IMG/VR virus record: IMGVR_UViG_3300025933_000001
Span: 23,722-87,721 of that record
Strand: one strand, 5' to 3'
Length of the DNA stretch: 64,000 bases
Origin: a virus
Shown here: positions 1,491 through 34,622 of the stretch, one piece after another
Position numbering within the stretch: the first letter of the stretch is position 1
Layout of the letters: each line of letters starts with the position of its first letter
Made by a program: the position numbers and the translations under genes
The notes under the pieces: model-generated
Database searches by the model: none
What the model was told of the DNA's origin: nothing
What the model saw: only the letters and a program-made list of their open reading frames with translations

Positions 1491-1558
1491 ACCTATATTC
1501 TCTGTAAGGAATATGTTACGAATATTCCTTGTAAGGTATATTTTACAATTAACTTAAG

Positions 1559-1586
1559 AAGGGCACTTTTGGTGCCCTTTTATTTT
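1559..1586 (+). terminator. terminator-like hairpin
   Basis: AAGGGCAC-TTTTG-GTGCCCTT followed by a T tract. Confidence 0.6.
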
Positions 1587-2808
1587 GTCTAATAATAACG
1601 TAGGAAGGATGGAAAGAATGCAGGTTGGAGAGAAATATAAAACAAAACATTGGGGTGAGGTGGAAGTGTTGGAAATCTTACCAAAGAGAATGGTAAAGAT
1701 CGTCTTTCTGAATACAGGGCACATAAAGTCTACAAGAAAAGATGCTCTTGAAATGGGGTACGCAACCGACTCAGAAGCAGAAGAGGGAGGGATGCTTCCT
1801 GAAGTTGAGTATAAGAAAGTCTCGTCCGAGGATGCTTACATACCTTCAGGAACTGTCTTTGAAAGTAAAAATTGGGGAAAATTTGAGGTAGTGGAATACC
1901 TTGGCAGCAAAAATATAAAGATAAGATTTTTAGCTACAGGCTGTGAACAAGTAACACAAAGATACACTATCGAAAACGGACTGGTCAAAGACTACATAGC
2001 AGAAGCCAAGATTAAAGAGGAAAAGAGATTACTGGAGGAAGAACAGAAACGGCAGAAAGAAAAGTTGAGGGAAGAAGCTAAACTAGAGAGATTGAGGAAA
2101 GATAAAGAGATACAAGAAAAACGTAGGAAAGAAAAAGAGTTAAAACAAGCTGAACTACACAGACGTAGGCTGGAAAAAGCAGAGGCTAGGAATGCAGAGT
2201 TTGTAGGGTTCACAAACACTGATACTTACGGATTAGAATATACGGTGGTAGGAAGGAAAGGTATTAACAAAGTATGGGCTGTACAATACAAAGAGTCCGG
2301 CAACACTTATGAATGTAAGGAAGGTCTGATACTGAAAGGCCATGTTTTGGATAAAAATCATCCGAAATTTAAAGAATTAGAGAAAGAATATATAAGGCGT
2401 AAGAGCATAGAGTGGTACGAGAAAAATAGAGAATCGGCTATAGATGCTGCTAAAACTTATCAAAAGAACAATTTAGATAGGGCTAGGATTAAGAATCAGA
2501 AGAGAAGGGCTAAGAGAAAGAAAATTGGTGGAAGTCATACTTTAGAGGAAATTGAACAGATGTTGGAGGATCAAAACTGCCAATGTAATTGTTGTGGAGA
2601 AATATTAACTAAAAGCAATAAACATCTAGATCATATTATGCCTGTAGCGTTAGGTGGCAGTAATTCAATAGAGAATCTTCAATGGCTTTGTCAATTTTGT
2701 AACATTAGCAAGTCAGACAAACATCCAGACGAATGGGCTATCTACTCAGCTACTGAAGAATTTAAGCTGAGAAGACAGGCAAGACTTCAAAATTCAATTT
2801 TAAACTAA
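1585..2808 (+). CDS. HNH homing endonuclease with repeated N-terminal domains (start probably 1609 or 1618)
   Basis: C-terminal CNCC...HLDHIMPVALGGSNSIENLQWLCQFCNISK HNH/Zn motif; repeated K(H/N)WGxxEVxE units. Confidence 0.85.
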   Translation: MSNNNVGRMERMQVGEKYKTKHWGEVEVLEILPKRMVKIVFLNTGHIKSTRKDALEMGYATDSEAEEGGMLPEVEYKKVSSEDAYIPSGTVFESKNWGKFEVVEYLGSKNIKIRFLATGCEQVTQRYTIENGLVKDYIAEAKIKEEKRLLEEEQKRQKEKLREEAKLERLRKDKEIQEKRRKEKELKQAELHRRRLEKAEARNAEFVGFTNTDTYGLEYTVVGRKGINKVWAVQYKESGNTYECKEGLILKGHVLDKNHPKFKELEKEYIRRKSIEWYEKNRESAIDAAKTYQKNNLDRARIKNQKRRAKRKKIGGSHTLEEIEQMLEDQNCQCNCCGEILTKSNKHLDHIMPVALGGSNSIENLQWLCQFCNISKSDKHPDEWAIYSATEEFKLRRQARLQNSILN

Positions 2809-3091
2809 AAATAAAATTTCAAAACACGATTTTCAGGCAGAAACTATAAATTAAGTTCTTGTAATATCCATAGGAGTATGCTTGGAAATTAGTCATTCAG
2901 CGGTTGTGTTGCGAAGCCAGGGACATATCTATCCGATACCGGCCCTAGGTTCTATCAAAAATATCCACAAGCCATTTTCTCTTCAAGTTAGTACCTTCCT
3001 ACCCTCTTTAGCATCGACGCCTCTACGGGCCTCCTATCGCTTCCTATGGCTATGTGTAAAACCTAGAACGATCGTAAATACCTCTTGATTT

Positions 3092-3102
3092 TGTGGTATA
3101 GT
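3092..3102 (+). promoter_or_regulatory. extended -10 promoter for the recombinase
   Basis: TGTGGTATAGT (TGn-TATAGT) about 30 nt upstream of the GAGG RBS and ATG at 3134. Confidence 0.5.
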
Positions 3103-3133
3103 GAACTTTCCACTACTGTATGAAGAGGTTGAT

Positions 3134-3838
3134 ATGAAACAAGCTATAGGGTATGTCCGTGTGAGTACTAAGGAACAAGGCGATAGTAAGCTTGGGCTAG
3201 AGGCACAGAGGAAAGCAATAGAGGAGTTTGCGACAACACATGGTTATGAACTACTCACCACACATGAGGAAGTTGCCAGCGGAGGAAGTGGACTAGATGA
3301 ACGTAAGGTTTTGCGTCAGGCACTATCACAAGCAAAGAAACTGAAGTGTTTTATTCTCATCTCTAAGTTGGATCGGTTATCTCGCGAGGTTAGCCTAGTC
3401 AGTAGTCTGATGACTCAGCGAGTGCCCTTTGTATGCTGTGACCTAGGTGACAGTGTTGATCCATTTGTGTTGCACATCTATGCCGCATTTGCTGAGTCAG
3501 AGCGAAAGCGTAACAGTGACCGTACTAAGGCAGCATTAAAGGCCATTAGGCACAACATAGAGGCCAATGGATACCACATCAGCAAAGCAGGCAATAAGAT
3601 CGATAAGCTAGGCAACCACAACAATTTGCACTTAGGTAGTGCTAAGGGTAGAGCTGCTGTAAAGGCTTACGCTGATGAGTTTGCACACAAACATAAGCCC
3701 TCTATAGAGCGTATGCGTAGTCAAGGAATGACATTACAGGCTATTGCTAGAGAGCTTAATGATCAAGGTGTACCAACACAACGTAACGGTACATGGACTG
3801 CTACGAGTGTTAGTAACCTCATTAAGAGGTGGAAGTAA
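3134..3838 (+). CDS. serine recombinase (resolvase catalytic domain plus C-terminal recombinase DNA-binding domain)
   Basis: GYVRVSTxEQ catalytic Ser motif, KLDRLSR motif, C-terminal TLQAIARELNDQGVPTQRNGTWTATSV. Confidence 0.92.
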   Translation: MKQAIGYVRVSTKEQGDSKLGLEAQRKAIEEFATTHGYELLTTHEEVASGGSGLDERKVLRQALSQAKKLKCFILISKLDRLSREVSLVSSLMTQRVPFVCCDLGDSVDPFVLHIYAAFAESERKRNSDRTKAALKAIRHNIEANGYHISKAGNKIDKLGNHNNLHLGSAKGRAAVKAYADEFAHKHKPSIERMRSQGMTLQAIARELNDQGVPTQRNGTWTATSVSNLIKRWK

Positions 3839-4118
3839 TAACACTACTAATAGTAAGTAACTATTGTACCTACCGTAGTTAATAGTCTTTAGCTACACAA
3901 CTAAGCCCACACACTAAGCTAAGTACTCTAGTTTGTTACTTAGCTTTCTTTCAGCTTGTAAGTAAAAGTCTTTCCATTCTGTTAAGTAATTATTATTTTG
4001 TCATTGTTTGTAGGAAACTAAGGTTTCGTACTCAAATAATAGAACAGTCGTACTATTTTTAAGAAGACTATAGCAGGTTCGCCAAAGTAGCGAAACAAAC
4101 ACACAGCATTACAAATAA

Positions 4119-4168
4119 TGTTAATAACCCTGTGGATAACTTTTAAGTTATTAACAATGTTATCCACA
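4119..4168. promoter_or_regulatory. cluster of four DnaA boxes
   Basis: TGTTAATAA (4119), TGTGGATAA (4131), TTATTAACA (4148), TTATCCACA (4160): two perfect and two 1-mismatch matches to TTATNCACA. Confidence 0.75.
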
Positions 4169-4388
4169 AGCCATAATTGTACTAATAATGGTAATTATGA
4201 TACTACTTAGTAATTATAATCCTCTGTAATTCCCTATAATTCGTACACAAACACATATTCTGTAAAGAAAGATTCTATAGCTTTGCACACACAACAAGGA
4301 TGCTTCTGTAAGTGGGGTATTTTGTACACAACACAAGATATTATTGCGATAGCGTAATAATACATTTACCCCACAACATAGAGATTAT

Positions 4389-4609
4389 GCCGTGAAAACG
4401 GCCATATGCTAGTGCGTCAGCACACAACAACCCTCTATGCGCTGGAAAGCGCCCTATAGCCTGTATTATTTGGTAGGAGGGGGAGATTACGTAAGTAATC
4501 CATTCTCCCCCTATAACATAGCTCTATGGTCGTTATCACGACATGTTCATAAGGCGCTTGCCAGCGCATAATATAGCTACGTAAGATTGCTTTCTACCTA
4601 CGTAAGTAG
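4389..4609. repeat. hairpin and inverted-repeat cluster
   Basis: 18-bp inverted repeat 4436-4453 / 4553-4570 (1 mismatch); stem-loops at 4389, 4439, 4485, 4529 and 4598, mostly with GNRA loops. Confidence 0.75.
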
Positions 4610-4615
4610 TATAAT
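4587..4615 (+). promoter_or_regulatory. sigma70 promoter
   Basis: TTGCTT-17-TATAAT. Confidence 0.65.
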
Positions 4616-4671
4616 AACACTGTTAGGGCTTAGAAGCCCTTTTTGTGTTTCTCTTACAATTTATTAACATT

Positions 4672-5217
4672 ATGTCTAAATTCGTACGCACTACTATAAC
4701 CAACCCTGATGGTAGTATTTCTCCAGCTAGAATTAACACAGAAACTGGGGAGATAAAACCCTATAAACACTGGAAACAGAAAGAGAATGAAGAATTCAGA
4801 AAACAGCTAAAACTTAAGCGAAAAGACGGAATAAATGATGCTACAAAACCTTTATTCTGGGAAATTATTCCTCCTCCGGCGATAGCTGGAGGGAATGAGA
4901 AGAAAGAGAATAAGGCTATTAGGAAGAGTAAAGAAAACGTAAATAACATCTATCTTCAAGAGTTCCTTACACTCTCTGAAGCTATCGAAGATGTACCTAT
5001 TTTAGACAACTTGATTACAGGAGTAAGTAAATTGGATTCAGGAAATAAAAACCCGATCAATAAAGGTTTGTTGTTTAGTATGCTAAGAGATTTAGACGTT
5101 ATCAATGTTACTACAGTGCAACAATACACTGGTTATTCTGAGAGATATTGCCGTAAGCTTGTTCAATACTTGTTTGTGCTTTCTACGGCATTTGATAACG
5201 AGATTGAGAAGAATTGA
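4672..5217 (+). CDS. putative DNA-binding protein with C-terminal HTH-like motif
   Basis: Basic protein; INVTTVQQYTGYSERYCRKL resembles an HTH; has its own promoter (ORF track start 4645). Confidence 0.55.
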   Translation: MSKFVRTTITNPDGSISPARINTETGEIKPYKHWKQKENEEFRKQLKLKRKDGINDATKPLFWEIIPPPAIAGGNEKKENKAIRKSKENVNNIYLQEFLTLSEAIEDVPILDNLITGVSKLDSGNKNPINKGLLFSMLRDLDVINVTTVQQYTGYSERYCRKLVQYLFVLSTAFDNEIEKN

Positions 5218-5308
5218 CGTATTTTATTATAATACTGTGGCCGTAGCATTTTACCCTGATTAATTATTAAGCAAATCCTTGATAGAATGCGGGTTACAGG
5301 CTATCGTC

Positions 5309-5317
5309 TGTGGATAA
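5309..5317 (-). promoter_or_regulatory. perfect DnaA box
   Basis: TGTGGATAA, the reverse complement of TTATCCACA. Confidence 0.55.
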
Positions 5318-5359
5318 CTTACTCATTGGAAACGTAGTAAATAATTGCACAAAAGAAAT

Positions 5360-5394
5360 AAGCCTAGACAGACAGTCTGTGTCTGTCTAGGCTT
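5360..5394. terminator. bidirectional terminator between convergent units
   Basis: Perfect 15-bp stem AAGCCTAGACAGACA / TGTCTGTCTAGGCTT. Confidence 0.8.
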
Positions 5395-5400
5395 TAGTTC

Positions 5401-5553
5401 TCAATAATCTTTGAACTCACTTGTGTCAAAGATTGCAGCAGTGTAACCGTTAGACCATGCTTTGTGCTCACTTGTGCCTTCGGCGTATGGGTTATTGAGG
5501 ACAGATTCCTTATTGTAGAAAGCATTGAATCCTTGTTGGTAAGCTTCAGTCAT
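5401..5553 (-). CDS. Rmf/CrpP-fold small protein (50 aa, not in the ORF track)
   Basis: MTEAYQQGFNAFYNKESVLNNPYAEGTSEHKAWSNGYTAA matches the A-x3-G..A..(C/N)PY..W..G(W/Y) pattern; AAGGA RBS; own promoter. Confidence 0.65.
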   Translation of the reverse strand: MTEAYQQGFNAFYNKESVLNNPYAEGTSEHKAWSNGYTAAIFDTSEFKDY

Positions 5554-5592
5554 GATCTATTCCTTTCCATGAGTGGTTAGTTGATGGAATGA

Positions 5593-5621
5593 ATTATAGA
5601 GAGATTATCTTACTGTGTAAA
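5593..5621 (-). promoter_or_regulatory. early sigma70 promoter, conserved-spacer family
   Basis: TTTACA-CAGTAAGATAATCTCTC-TATAAT. Confidence 0.8.
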
Positions 5622-5624
5622 GCA

Positions 5625-5831
5625 TTATATGTAGAACGTTGATCTTTGCTTTATCATCTCATCTAGAGGCATTACTTTCACTCCTTTGTAATCTCTGTCA
5701 GGCTTCAATACTTCAGGGCTTGCGATCTTCTTTGCTTCTTTCTCTGTGTCTGCTTCTACAATACAGGCGACAACGTGTAAAACGTTGACATATTTGGTTT
5801 GTGGCTGTCTGTACACTAAGAATAGGCTCAT
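5625..5831 (-). CDS. hypothetical early protein
   Basis: Contains VEADTEKEAKKIA; coupled to the upstream gene. Confidence 0.65.
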   Translation of the reverse strand: MSLFLVYRQPQTKYVNVLHVVACIVEADTEKEAKKIASPEVLKPDRDYKGVKVMPLDEMIKQRSTFYI

Positions 5832-6067
5832 TTTATCCCTTTCAACACTCGTTTCAAGTATAACTCCAACATCCCCAATTCAAACTCTACTTTCTGCCTT
5901 CCATTCTTTTTAGCTTTCTGCATAGCATTCTGAATGTCTAGCATTGTCTTGTTAGCTCGATACTGAAGCTGATAATTATTTATCAATGATTGTTCGTTGA
6001 CGTTTACACTGCCAAACATTAAATCTCTGGACAGTTTTTCATAATTACTCATTCTATCCCTCCACAA
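5828..6067 (-). CDS. hypothetical early protein
   Basis: ORF in the leftward operon. Confidence 0.6.
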   Translation of the reverse strand: MWRDRMSNYEKLSRDLMFGSVNVNEQSLINNYQLQYRANKTMLDIQNAMQKAKKNGRQKVEFELGMLELYLKRVLKGIK

Positions 6068-6251
6068 CTCTAAACTGTGTTTGTTCTTCGCCTTCCATCA
6101 TCTCCCATCTGTTTTGAGACTCTATCCACTTAGTAGCATCCTCCTCAGATGAATACTCAGCTAGACAATCAAAATCATGATGTGCTGCAAACCAATTCCC
6201 TGTTTGTGTATTGTAAAACTGTACACTGTACCACTTAGCGTTATCTCTCAT
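6054..6251 (-). CDS. hypothetical early protein
   Basis: ORF in the leftward operon with RBS. Confidence 0.65.
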   Translation of the reverse strand: MRDNAKWYSVQFYNTQTGNWFAAHHDFDCLAEYSSEEDATKWIESQNRWEMMEGEEQTQFRVVEG

Positions 6252-6458
6252 TTATAGCCCCTACAATCGATTATTCTGTGTTGGACATAGGCAGATATGC
6301 CATTGCGTGTTTTGACAGCTTCTAGCCTTGTTTTAACGAAGATAAAACCACTTCTACTAATGCTCCTACTGCTAAAGATAAGCTACTGACTGCCATTACT
6401 GTGAGAAGAATTTCATGGATTGACATTTCATTACTCCTTTGCGTTGTTGATGTATTGA

Positions 6459-6486
6459 ATGATAGTAGGTAATCTTACTCTGTCAA
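6459..6486 (-). promoter_or_regulatory. early sigma70 promoter
   Basis: TTGACA-GAGTAAGATTACCTAC-TATCAT. Confidence 0.65.
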
Positions 6487-6596
6487 TAGAGTTTGTGACT
6501 ACAAATACCTGTTTTAACGAAGATAGACAACTATTCCAGCTACAGAAAGAGAAACATTAAACACTACAATAAGCACGGACAGAATAATTTGTGTTG

Positions 6597-12626: not shown

Positions 12627-12744
12627 GTTAAAAGCTCCAGTAAGTTAGTAATAGATTGATTCGTTGCTTGCTTGTTAGAGTTGCGCTGAATCGATAACCG
12701 AATAGTACATAGCGTTTTCTATTTATGCAAGGGTTTTTAACTAA

Positions 12745-13185
12745 ATAATTAACCTTTCCATAATTAGTTATATGGAAAGAGTCACTAGCAGTTAAAAATT
12801 TCTCTTGATAAATGCTGAAAACGTTCTAAGATGCTATAAGCCGATAAAAGTTTGCTCGAAGGTTTCTCTTCGCCTTTCGCAAGCATTGACGGTCTATTAC
12901 ATATAGAGGAGTGATTGCATAACTATTCTTTGTTGATTCTTTAGACCTGTTTTATGGCGTGTGATTGCGCCTGTTGTTTGACGTGTGTCAGAGGGATTGT
13001 TTCGCCCTTTCGTTTCATCCTGCTTATTGCTTGGAGGGTTCGCTATGCCTGTTTAATTACTTGTTACTAATGCTTGATTACTGAAAATGGATAGTAGTTA
13101 GCTATCCATAACAATTTGCTATCTGTTTGCGCTGTTAGCGATGGGCTTTCTATTGCCTTTTCGTTAATAGTGCTAAACATTTCGC
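12745..13185 (-). ncRNA. candidate large structured non-coding RNA
   Basis: No ORF of 60 aa or more; many local and long-range complementary segments; extended -10 at 13188-13197; terminal hairpin 12754-12779. Confidence 0.5.
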
Positions 13186-13219: not shown

Positions 13220-13362
13220 TATTGTGTAAAAACAACATATTGTTGTATGGAACCAACGTTTTGTTTGTTTCACACGACAGTTTTGTCACGTCTATACAAC
13301 ATTGTTGTATAAAAACAACGGTGTTGCTATTTTACAACTTAAAATTTACAATTTTGACAACA
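13220..13362. repeat. tandem array of 18-bp palindromes TGTTG-N8-CAACA
   Basis: Copies start at 13220, 13241, 13262, 13284, 13303 and 13322, plus a half-site copy at 13345. Confidence 0.8.
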
Positions 13363-16594: not shown

Positions 16595-16623
16595 TTGCAC
16601 TATACAAATAGTAGTTGTATAAT
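16595..16623 (+). promoter_or_regulatory. sigma70 promoter of the 699-aa gene
   Basis: TTGCAC-17-TATAAT, preceded by palindrome TTGTGACAGTTGTCACAA. Confidence 0.7.
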
Positions 16624-16716
16624 TAACACTGTTAGTTAACTTTGTGGAGGTAGGTATGTAACAATCTTAAGTGTATTAAATGTAGTAAAAATCTATTAAC
16701 AACTTAAATAAAGAAA

Positions 16717-34312: not shown

Positions 34313-34622
34313 CAACATTGTGGATAAAATTCTCTTGCCCATCTCTGTTTTGATGGTTGTAGGGTCAGTGATTATTTTCAATAACGCAGAAGCCAGAAGC
34401 TCTAAACCTGTAAGACAATTTGTATCTGTTCACGCATGTCCAGTTACGGGGAAGTTTGAAAGGCATTGTCCTGGCTATGTTGTAGACCACATTGTCCCTC
34501 TGTGTGCTGGAGGACCAGATAAGCCAGATAACATGCAATGGCAGGAAGTGAAAGAGTCTTATAAGAAGGATGCTGAGGAAAGGAAGCTTTGTAAGAGGCT
34601 TAAGAAGGAGGGGAAGGTGTGA
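34302..34622 (+). CDS. small HNH nuclease with N-terminal signal peptide
   Basis: Hydrophobic leader ending AEA; CPGYVVDHIVPLCAGGPDKPDNMQWQ. Confidence 0.75.
   Translation: MNISNIVDKILLPISVLMVVGSVIIFNNAEARSSKPVRQFVSVHACPVTGKFERHCPGYVVDHIVPLCAGGPDKPDNMQWQEVKESYKKDAEERKLCKRLKKEGKV

Follow-up and report, generated by a model that had tools for sequence, protein, structure and literature searches.

Why should a phage that encodes its own replication enzymes carry, next to a serine recombinase gene, a tight cluster of binding sites for the bacterial initiator DnaA? The locus lies at positions 3092-5394 of a 64,000-nucleotide stretch (the window), which comprises bases 23722-87721 of an 87,721-bp IMG/VR record, IMGVR_UViG_3300025933_000001, that has terminal repeats and is rated 100% complete. 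The genome, from an uncultured lytic-type soil phage present in public rhizosphere metagenomes, encodes a T7-type primase-helicase, Pol A, an exonuclease and a ribonucleotide reductase; independence of DnaA is generally assumed for virulent phages that possess a complete set of replication genes. An initial annotation of the locus interpreted the recombinase gene, the DnaA boxes and a downstream open reading frame (ORF190) either as a plasmid-like replicon or as a device that titrates host DnaA. Our analysis favours another answer, namely that positions 4119-4285 constitute a docking and unwinding site for host DnaA, most likely the replication origin of the phage. We hold this reading tentatively, at a probability of roughly 45%.

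The argument begins with the boxes themselves. In an 87.7-kb genome 0.89 perfect DnaA boxes (TTATCCACA) are expected, and three of those present here lie inside 1.2 kb (P ~4e-5). Four clustered boxes in opposed pairs and a fifth, perfect one further downstream had originally been described; the opposed pairs stand, but each joins one perfect box to a two-mismatch box (TTATTAACA), and the downstream box at 5309 is indeed perfect, being the third rather than the fifth of its kind. Neither DnaA domain IV (PF08299) nor the DnaA AAA+ domain (PF00308) was found anywhere in the phage genome, so that the binder is almost certainly host DnaA; nor is ORF190 the binder, since box clusters also occur in relatives that lack it. 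Judged on sequence, the boxes at 4119-4168 very probably serve as functional docking sites for host DnaA. A further perfect box, at 34319 and followed by six nTn triplets, may be a chance occurrence, as one stray box per genome is expected.

Beyond the right-facing perfect box, the spacer AGCC leads into twelve consecutive triplets with a central T (a central A on the opposite strand), the longest period-3 run in the window (P = 3e-5, local shuffles). Relative to box 4160 the run has the same orientation as that of E. coli R1 toward the DNA unwinding element (DUE). The AT-rich flank reported earlier was recovered, with 27-35% GC across 3900-4300, and in a stability scan of the whole genome the segment 4135-4285 ranked first among the least stable duplexes at 40 and 100 bp and second (tied) at 60 and 150 bp.

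This arrangement recalls the basal unwinding system (BUS) of bacterial oriC, which consists of tandem DnaA boxes, a short GC-rich spacer, DnaA-trios and AT-rich DNA (PMC6669920, PMC8287927). Published search rules for it allow no more than 3 bp between the tandem boxes and a spacer of up to 16 bp, and they require three or more nAn trios (PMC8287927). With up to two mismatches to TTATCCACA allowed in the first box and up to four in the second tandem box, the phage locus presents perfect boxes, TTATTAACA 3 bp away, a 4-bp spacer, 12 trios and, at 4135-4285, an adjoining AT-rich and easily unwound region. The order of weak box, 3 bp, perfect box, 4-bp AGCC and twelve central-A triplets in the most meltable DNA is thus shared with the BUS. 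Several features set the two apart: the phage site resides in a lytic-type genome with its own helicase-primase and polymerase and not by dnaA or dnaN, its triplets are mostly off the GAT consensus, its stronger box is the proximal one, it has a second, opposed half that is not conserved between strains, and the relatives of the phage retain the boxes, not the long trio run.

Were the site to work as its layout suggests, host DnaA would bind the two perfect boxes and spread cooperatively to the weaker boxes 12 bp off. A DnaA filament would then extend from box 4160 over the 4-bp spacer onto the twelve trio-like triplets and melt the least stable DNA of the genome, and the T7-type primase-helicase of the phage, or host DnaB, would load on the bubble. 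DnaA binding, unwinding and origin function are what we infer for this site, as are the roles proposed below for an RNA, for ORF190 and for the recombinase.

Between-strain conservation singles out the same segment. A co-occurring strain, compared from two other rhizosphere samples, has four differences over 1500-3715 and none over 5244-6500, its divergence being restricted to 3716-4934. Inside this interval positions 4131-4223 are unchanged and include both perfect boxes, the right weak box, the spacer and the triplet run, flanked on one side by eight substitutions and one deletion over 4102-4130 (among them 4127, 4129 and 4130, which abut the box) and on the other by a 10-nt deletion from 4224; further out, the AT-rich spacer has substitutions and a replaced or skipped block of 70 nt (4002-4071). 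Neither the left weak box nor the longer 13-mer repeats survive in this strain, which indicates that the conserved unit is the 9-bp DnaA core and not a longer recombinase site. Likewise, because 2974 A>C alters the flank shared by boxes 2961 and 4160, the extended repeat at 2961 is probably not functional. The mosaic at 3716-4934 looks like an origin-like cassette exchanged by homologous recombination. A third variant, of lower depth, spans 4905-5244.

The boxes also recur across the clade. The nearest cultured relatives are virulent ~90-kb myophages (PAK_P1-like, KIL1-like, Otagovirus) with a primase-helicase identity of ~55%, and closer uncultured relatives, labelled G001-G015, are present in IMG/VR at 51-68% identity. 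Two sister contigs, the nearest of all, carry the proteins P0002 and P0003 (58-60% identity). Of 14 uncultured relatives, 12 have clusters of two to six perfect boxes, while matches to the reversed control pattern number 0-1, and every complete or large relative carries a tight cluster. Perfect boxes number six in 0.8 kb in G001, four in G002, three in G003, two pairs in G004, three in 64 bp in G005, four in 75 bp in G008, six in G009 and four in G013, with clusters likewise in G006, G007, G010, G011 and G015; a single box was found in G012 (55% complete) and no box in G014 (38% complete). The boxes are often spaced 11-12 bp apart, the 9-mer is exact despite widely differing GC content, and single extra boxes are scattered in the same genomes. 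In 7 of 12 loci from 11 relatives the least stable 60-100 bp lie at most 114 bp from a perfect box.

In three high-GC relatives (G001, G002 and G009) the box region, 1.1-1.5 kb long, sits between convergent genes, an arrangement that speaks against a simple divergent mRNA promoter hub. The non-coding box region is alignable among all three (L043:3698-5105, L044:3729-5290, L054:2464-3600) and contains 11-bp-phased box arrays of the form TGTGGATAA-CC-TGTGGACAA-GC-TGTGCACAA, together with CTCTTATAYAAGAG inverted repeats and a conserved GCCGTTTAAACGCGTTTTAAGGGGGCGCC block. Between its box cluster and recombinase gene, G005 has a non-coding segment (L041:5230-5420) that is purine-skewed and strongly G-rich and may be R-loop-prone.

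We know of no mapped replication origin for PAK_P1- or KIL-like phages and their relatives, and in a search of the open literature we found no earlier report of clustered perfect boxes from this group of phages. The cultured relatives PAK_P1, KIL1, Bobbio and PseuGes_254 hold 0-1 perfect boxes and no tight clusters, so that such clusters set the uncultured clade apart, a distinction that matters for annotation. One of them, vB_PseuGesM_254, falls into the same broad group, being likewise a ~90-kb myophage with terminal repeats, primase/helicase and Pol A, and its authors used Ori-Finder to propose an origin that is AT-rich and contains DnaA boxes (PMC11512268). Not one perfect TTATCCACA is present in that genome, and boxes with one mismatch do not rise above control level (12 vs 22), unlike the tight perfect-box clusters of the clade studied here; the published 'DnaA-box origin' rests on degenerate matches only, which again bears on annotation.

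Several observations weigh against an origin at 4119-4285. Equipped with its own primase-helicase and Pol A, the phage may be able to do without DnaA. None of the relatives retains the long trio run, their maximum being five triplets (G004) and their usual number 1-3; between strains, the left-facing half is variable; and G014 possesses the recombinase and an ORF190 homolog yet no perfect box. GC skew tracks transcription and gene orientation and leaves no mark at 4119-4285, and forks departing from the site would meet transcription head-on on both sides. The association of boxes with meltable DNA is inflated, because non-coding DNA is AT-rich in general. Finally, there are other candidates, in AT-rich DNA at 16.6 kb and in a palindrome array at 13.2-13.4 kb.

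Both of these have features of their own. At 13220-13362 and 12700-12760, a non-coding array of TGTTG-N8-CAACA palindromes lies by very unstable DNA; this array is another candidate for an origin or a control element, with CAACA half-sites that resemble the CACAACA copies at 4290-4429. The genome's second least stable duplex (16595-16700) is situated just upstream of a 699-aa ORF without a PHROG match.

Table 1. Coordinates of the features discussed, in window numbering
Feature	Position	Strand	Remarks
One-mismatch DnaA box ATATCCACA	2961-2969	+	Upstream of recombinase gene; 3' flank like that of box 4160 (repeat D3)
Small serine recombinase, 234 aa	3134-3838	+	Resolvase-type catalytic domain; short recombinase-type C-terminal helix-turn-helix (HTH)
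AT-rich spacer, strain-hypervariable	3839-4118		29-35% GC
Two-mismatch box TTATTAACA	4119-4127	-	12 bp start to start from perfect box 4131
Perfect DnaA box TTATCCACA	4131-4139	-	Left-facing pair
Least stable duplex of the 87.7-kb genome	4135-4285		Nearest-neighbour stability scan
Two-mismatch box TTATTAACA	4148-4156	+	Followed by ATG, then perfect box 4160 (12 bp start to start)
Perfect DnaA box TTATCCACA	4160-4168	+	Right-facing pair
AGCC spacer and twelve consecutive nTn triplets (4173-4208)	4169-4208	+	nAn on opposite strand; DnaA-trio-like; candidate unwinding element
CACAACA, four copies	4290-4429	+	Spacing 37, 45 and 51 bp
Hairpin cluster, candidate structured RNA	4336-4574	+	Loops ATAG, GAAA, GGAA, GTAA, TATC, TGCC
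Terminator-like hairpin and T-run	4625-4645 (stem-loop 4625-4640)	+	Directly before ORF190; strain variant differs in loop only
ORF190	4672-5217	+	181 aa from ATG 4672; unnamed family
GGGYTACAGKCT motif, 6-bp hairpin and perfect box	5293-5317	-	Downstream of ORF190
Perfect DnaA box TTATCCACA	5309-5317	-	92 bp past ORF190 stop
Terminator, perfect 15-bp stem	5360-5394		Where + and - strand genes converge (I10)
Perfect DnaA box TTATCCACA	34319-34327	-	First codons of small hydrophobic ORF (ATG 34304)

The non-coding stretch of 800 bp, the CACAACA-type repeats and the hairpin cluster of the initial annotation were all borne out: 3839-4671 holds no ORF of at least 50 aa, the four CACAACA copies lie on the + strand, and the region 4270-4650, with seven 4-nt-loop hairpins, has a fold z-score of -7.0 on either strand relative to shuffles. 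CACAACA occurs 24 times in the window against 12.6 expected, a count reached in 0 of 100 shuffles; each of the last three copies is followed, 5-10 nt downstream, by a 4-nt-loop hairpin, and the genome contains no second array of this kind. Three GNRA hairpins (GAAA, GGAA and GTAA) fall inside 100 nt, out of a genome-wide total of 11 on the + strand. Segments 4436-4457 and 4549-4570 are also able to pair (inverted repeat I2), and the fold is ambiguous between local hairpins and a long-range stem. Among the strain changes, G4445A converts the loop GGAA into GAAA, which is still GNRA, and those at 4513 and 4632/4633 affect unpaired or loop positions. A search of Rfam at E<=1 assigned the block to no family and gave one sub-threshold sRNA match (17 bits vs 68), and a tRNA/tmRNA search returned none.

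Taken together, 4290-4645 probably specifies an RNA or leader on the + strand, initiated close to the melted region and stopped by the 4625 terminator; it may act as a primer or activator transcript, or as a leader controlling ORF190. The origins of T7, T4 and ColE1 are transcript-activated. Lambda controls its replication via DnaA-stimulated transcription from pR (PMC3985674). The present locus is similar in combining DnaA sites, a possible promoter and a structured transcript by an unwinding region, with replication proteins supplied by the phage; it differs in having no O/P-type initiator and no mapped promoter, and its RNA is deduced from structure, GNRA loops and terminator. The idea of an RNA-guided recombinase was rejected, given that the G001 recombinase gene has no adjoining long non-coding block and that the block travels with the boxes.

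ORF190, the gene that follows, had been described as a promoter-driven, HTH-like ORF. Eight close homologs (42-60% identity) and a family of 194 cluster representatives establish it as a real gene, and the HTH-like end is supported by a structural model (pLDDT 89.6) in which a three-strand beta unit at the N-terminus is joined by a flexible linker to a helical, HTH-like domain at the C-terminus. The promoter fared less well, being weak at best and separated from the start codon by the terminator-like hairpin at 4625-4640; the gene also has no Shine-Dalgarno sequence. Sequence comparison gave no match to ORF190 in Pfam, PHROG, NCBIfam or PDB, and a few family members weakly match Sigma70_r4_2, HTH_23 or HTH_7. 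Fold searches (Foldseek and VIA-align, two models), which effectively covered the C-terminal domain only, reached a best Z of 5.5 for generic helical domains and did not yield the Rep match that had been anticipated, and ESM Atlas offered no usable match. Nucleotide and protein searches of GenBank phages returned no match to the region or to ORF190, nor did single-protein IMG/VR scans with ORF190 and with the recombinase return any.

Genes of this family repeatedly have a box of their own. A perfect box lies within 0.5 kb in 6 of 8 lineages, with G006 and G014 as exceptions to the pattern. In the window, L050 and L061, whose homologs share 44-47% aa identity, the element composed of the GGGYTACAGKCT motif, hairpin and box is found 80-95 bp past the stop, and its stem is kept via G-C, G-T and T-G changes (covariation). 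In other members the box precedes the start, by 22-30 bp in G013 and G015, by 354 bp in L063 and by ~550 bp in G004. A pattern scan for the downstream element retrieved L050 and L051 only, and a metagenome scan retrieved only a duplicate of L051. From this recurrence ORF190 would appear to be DnaA-controlled, or to act with or against DnaA. After the ORF190-linked box, L050 (6790-6860) and L061 (3630-3700), two diverged phages, share a near-identical strong promoter and leader (CCCTCTTGACAA..N..TAnAnTGCGCAACATTAGAAGAAAGCAGGAGAGCA).

DnaA also has an established role in transcription control, and the pattern around ORF190 lends itself to a second explanation, which we consider unlikely while taking it as a serious contender: that host DnaA-ATP switches a promoter for the structured RNA and ORF190, reading through the 4625 hairpin, that the single boxes by ORF190-family genes likewise control transcription, and that the phage in this way senses the replication state of its host. 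TATAAT elements occur at 4215 and 4235, 50-100 bp downstream of the boxes, and in L061 and L050 a box stands 35-200 bp upstream of a strong consensus promoter. The proximity of boxes to ORF190-family genes, among others just ahead of the start in G013 and G015, fits such control, as does the succession of a 380-nt structured block and a terminator-like hairpin before a gene without a Shine-Dalgarno sequence, and DnaA does stimulate lambda pR (PMC3985674). Against this, no good sigma-70 promoter scored beside the boxes of the window, the arrays of G001, G002 and G009 lie between convergent gene ends, and four to six boxes with 11-12 bp phasing by the most meltable DNA exceed what a promoter would need.

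Clusters of DnaA boxes that titrate or recharge the initiator are known from E. coli as datA and DARS. An equivalent role here, in which amplified boxes would soak up or inactivate host DnaA and block host initiation with nothing starting at the site, would account for high-affinity perfect boxes outside the chromosomal origin that are conserved over phages of very different GC, for the scattered single boxes in the same genomes and for the presence of the phage's own replication enzymes. We nevertheless judge it quite improbable. Each genome offers 3-6 boxes only, the boxes abut a DUE-like element, unlike those of datA and DARS, and titration would leave unexplained why the boxes are tightly linked to an unwinding-type element, why a trio-like run is present and why 4169-4223 is strictly conserved outside the boxes; the close association of boxes with the most meltable DNA speaks for unwinding rather than for a pure sponge.

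The plasmid-like carrier state put forward by the initial annotation, with ORF190 as Rep, the boxes as host cofactor sites and the recombinase as dimer resolvase or integrase of an episome, involves the recombinase gene. Its product was correctly recognized as an intact serine recombinase: it matches PF00239 (E 1.5e-23) with motifs RVS..Q, DRLSR and E.ER..RT, its C-terminus matches a segment of PF07508 (E 1e-7) and, weakly, HTH_62 and HTH_38, and its PHROG is 125, 'DNA invertase'. The linker is atypically long, with an 11-aa insertion. Orthologs (43-48% identity) retain YVRVSTKEQ, LDRLSR and ESERKRNSDRT, and strain differences fall almost entirely at third codon positions; by these signs the gene is intact and under purifying selection. 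The NCBIfam subfamilies Mpi invertase, XisF, CcrA/B, IS607 TnpA and YneB scored 26-38 bits against cut-offs of 110-900. As an integrase the protein was rejected, being too generic and, at 234 aa, far below the size of large serine integrases. The gap between recombinase gene and box cluster is below 1 kb in the window (0.3 kb), G006 (0.4 kb), G005 and G008 (0.7 kb each), intermediate in G013 and G015 (2.1 kb each), G004 (2.5 kb) and G003 (3.9 kb), and 13-14 kb wide in G001, G002 and G009. The recombinase would be a functional accessory gene and a frequent neighbour that the unit need not contain.

In plasmids a resolvase gene typically adjoins the origin, and boxes, HTH-like gene and recombinase do recur together in related phages: the three lie within ~8.5 kb in all genomes that have them (the window, G004, G006, G008, G013 and G015). 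Host DnaA boxes by an AT-rich region in a mobile element, with a gene for a DNA-binding protein and a site-specific recombinase nearby (cf. P1 Cre-lox and plasmid resolvases), also recall the iteron replicons that use host DnaA boxes, such as P1 oriR, F, pSC101 and RK2 (review PMC4980987). The phage departs from these in lacking iterons, a Rep homolog, partition genes and any sign of episomal maintenance. ORF190 has no Rep homology and, in searches that effectively covered its C-terminal domain, no fold match, repeat families in 2700-5700 are two-copy only, without tandem or phased iterons (at least three direct copies of 17-22 bp), and searches of the phage genome found neither ParB (ParB_N) nor a tyrosine integrase. 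Nor were copies or relatives found among 185,579 bacterial species genomes. These absences leave a carrier state unsupported; furthermore, the nearest cultured relatives are virulent, G001, G002, G003 and G005 have box clusters without an ORF190 homolog, and in three relatives the recombinase gene is far from the cluster. We therefore regard a plasmid-like replicon as very improbable.

A further reading, by which the serine recombinase binds or crosses over at the repeats that contain TTATCCACA and could invert or excise the intervening segments, is largely refuted and receives next to no credence from us: candidate sites do exist (CTGTGGATAACTT at 4130 and 5308, ATCCACAAGCCAT at 2963 and 4162), two exact 13-mers (D3 and D19) flank the recombinase gene and the ORF190 segment, and 4119-4168 contains an imperfect palindrome of 12-2-12 type (I3), but strain changes at 2974, 4127, 4129 and 4130 flank a 9-mer whose core stays perfect, the same 9-mer clusters lie 13-14 kb from the recombinase gene in three relatives, the flanks of five orthologous recombinase genes have no 10-mer in common, and four metagenome assemblies, in which contigs hide rare forms, contain no inversion or deletion joints.

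The neighbourhood of the locus includes two further genes. On the - strand, a 50-aa ORF at 5401-5553 matches ribosome modulation factor (PF04957, 30 bits vs a cut-off of 27.9) and is preceded by a near-consensus promoter, TTTACA-17-TATAAT, at 5593-5621; it is possibly a phage-borne ribosome hibernation factor, and the match hints at a gammaproteobacterial host. The terminator between this ORF and ORF190, described earlier as strong and bidirectional, does have its 15-bp stem; of its T-runs, that of the - strand is good and that of the + strand weak. Upstream of the recombinase gene, 1585-2808 on the + strand encodes an HNH endonuclease of 407 aa, which has two WG.xEV.E repeats at its N-terminus and a long coiled segment rich in Lys/Glu; its NCBIfam matches to IscB and Cas9d concern the HNH domain only, and a homolog (family F9) also adjoins the recombinase gene in G006.

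An origin opened by host DnaA at 4119-4285 remains our preferred answer to the question raised at the outset, and, if correct, it would provide a concrete origin candidate for the clade. Decidedly more doubtful is the wider proposition that this clade of ~90-kb lytic-type soil myophages, equipped with its own primase-helicase and Pol A, uses a chromosome-style opening of boxes and unwinding element as its origin, paired with the ORF190 family, whose genes are tied to single boxes, as a partner or antagonist of DnaA and with a GNRA-rich RNA from the opened region. Should a conserved docking and unwinding site in the clade be borne out, lytic phages could tie replication or early decisions to the state of the host initiator, and ORF190 would represent a new protein family linked to DnaA boxes.

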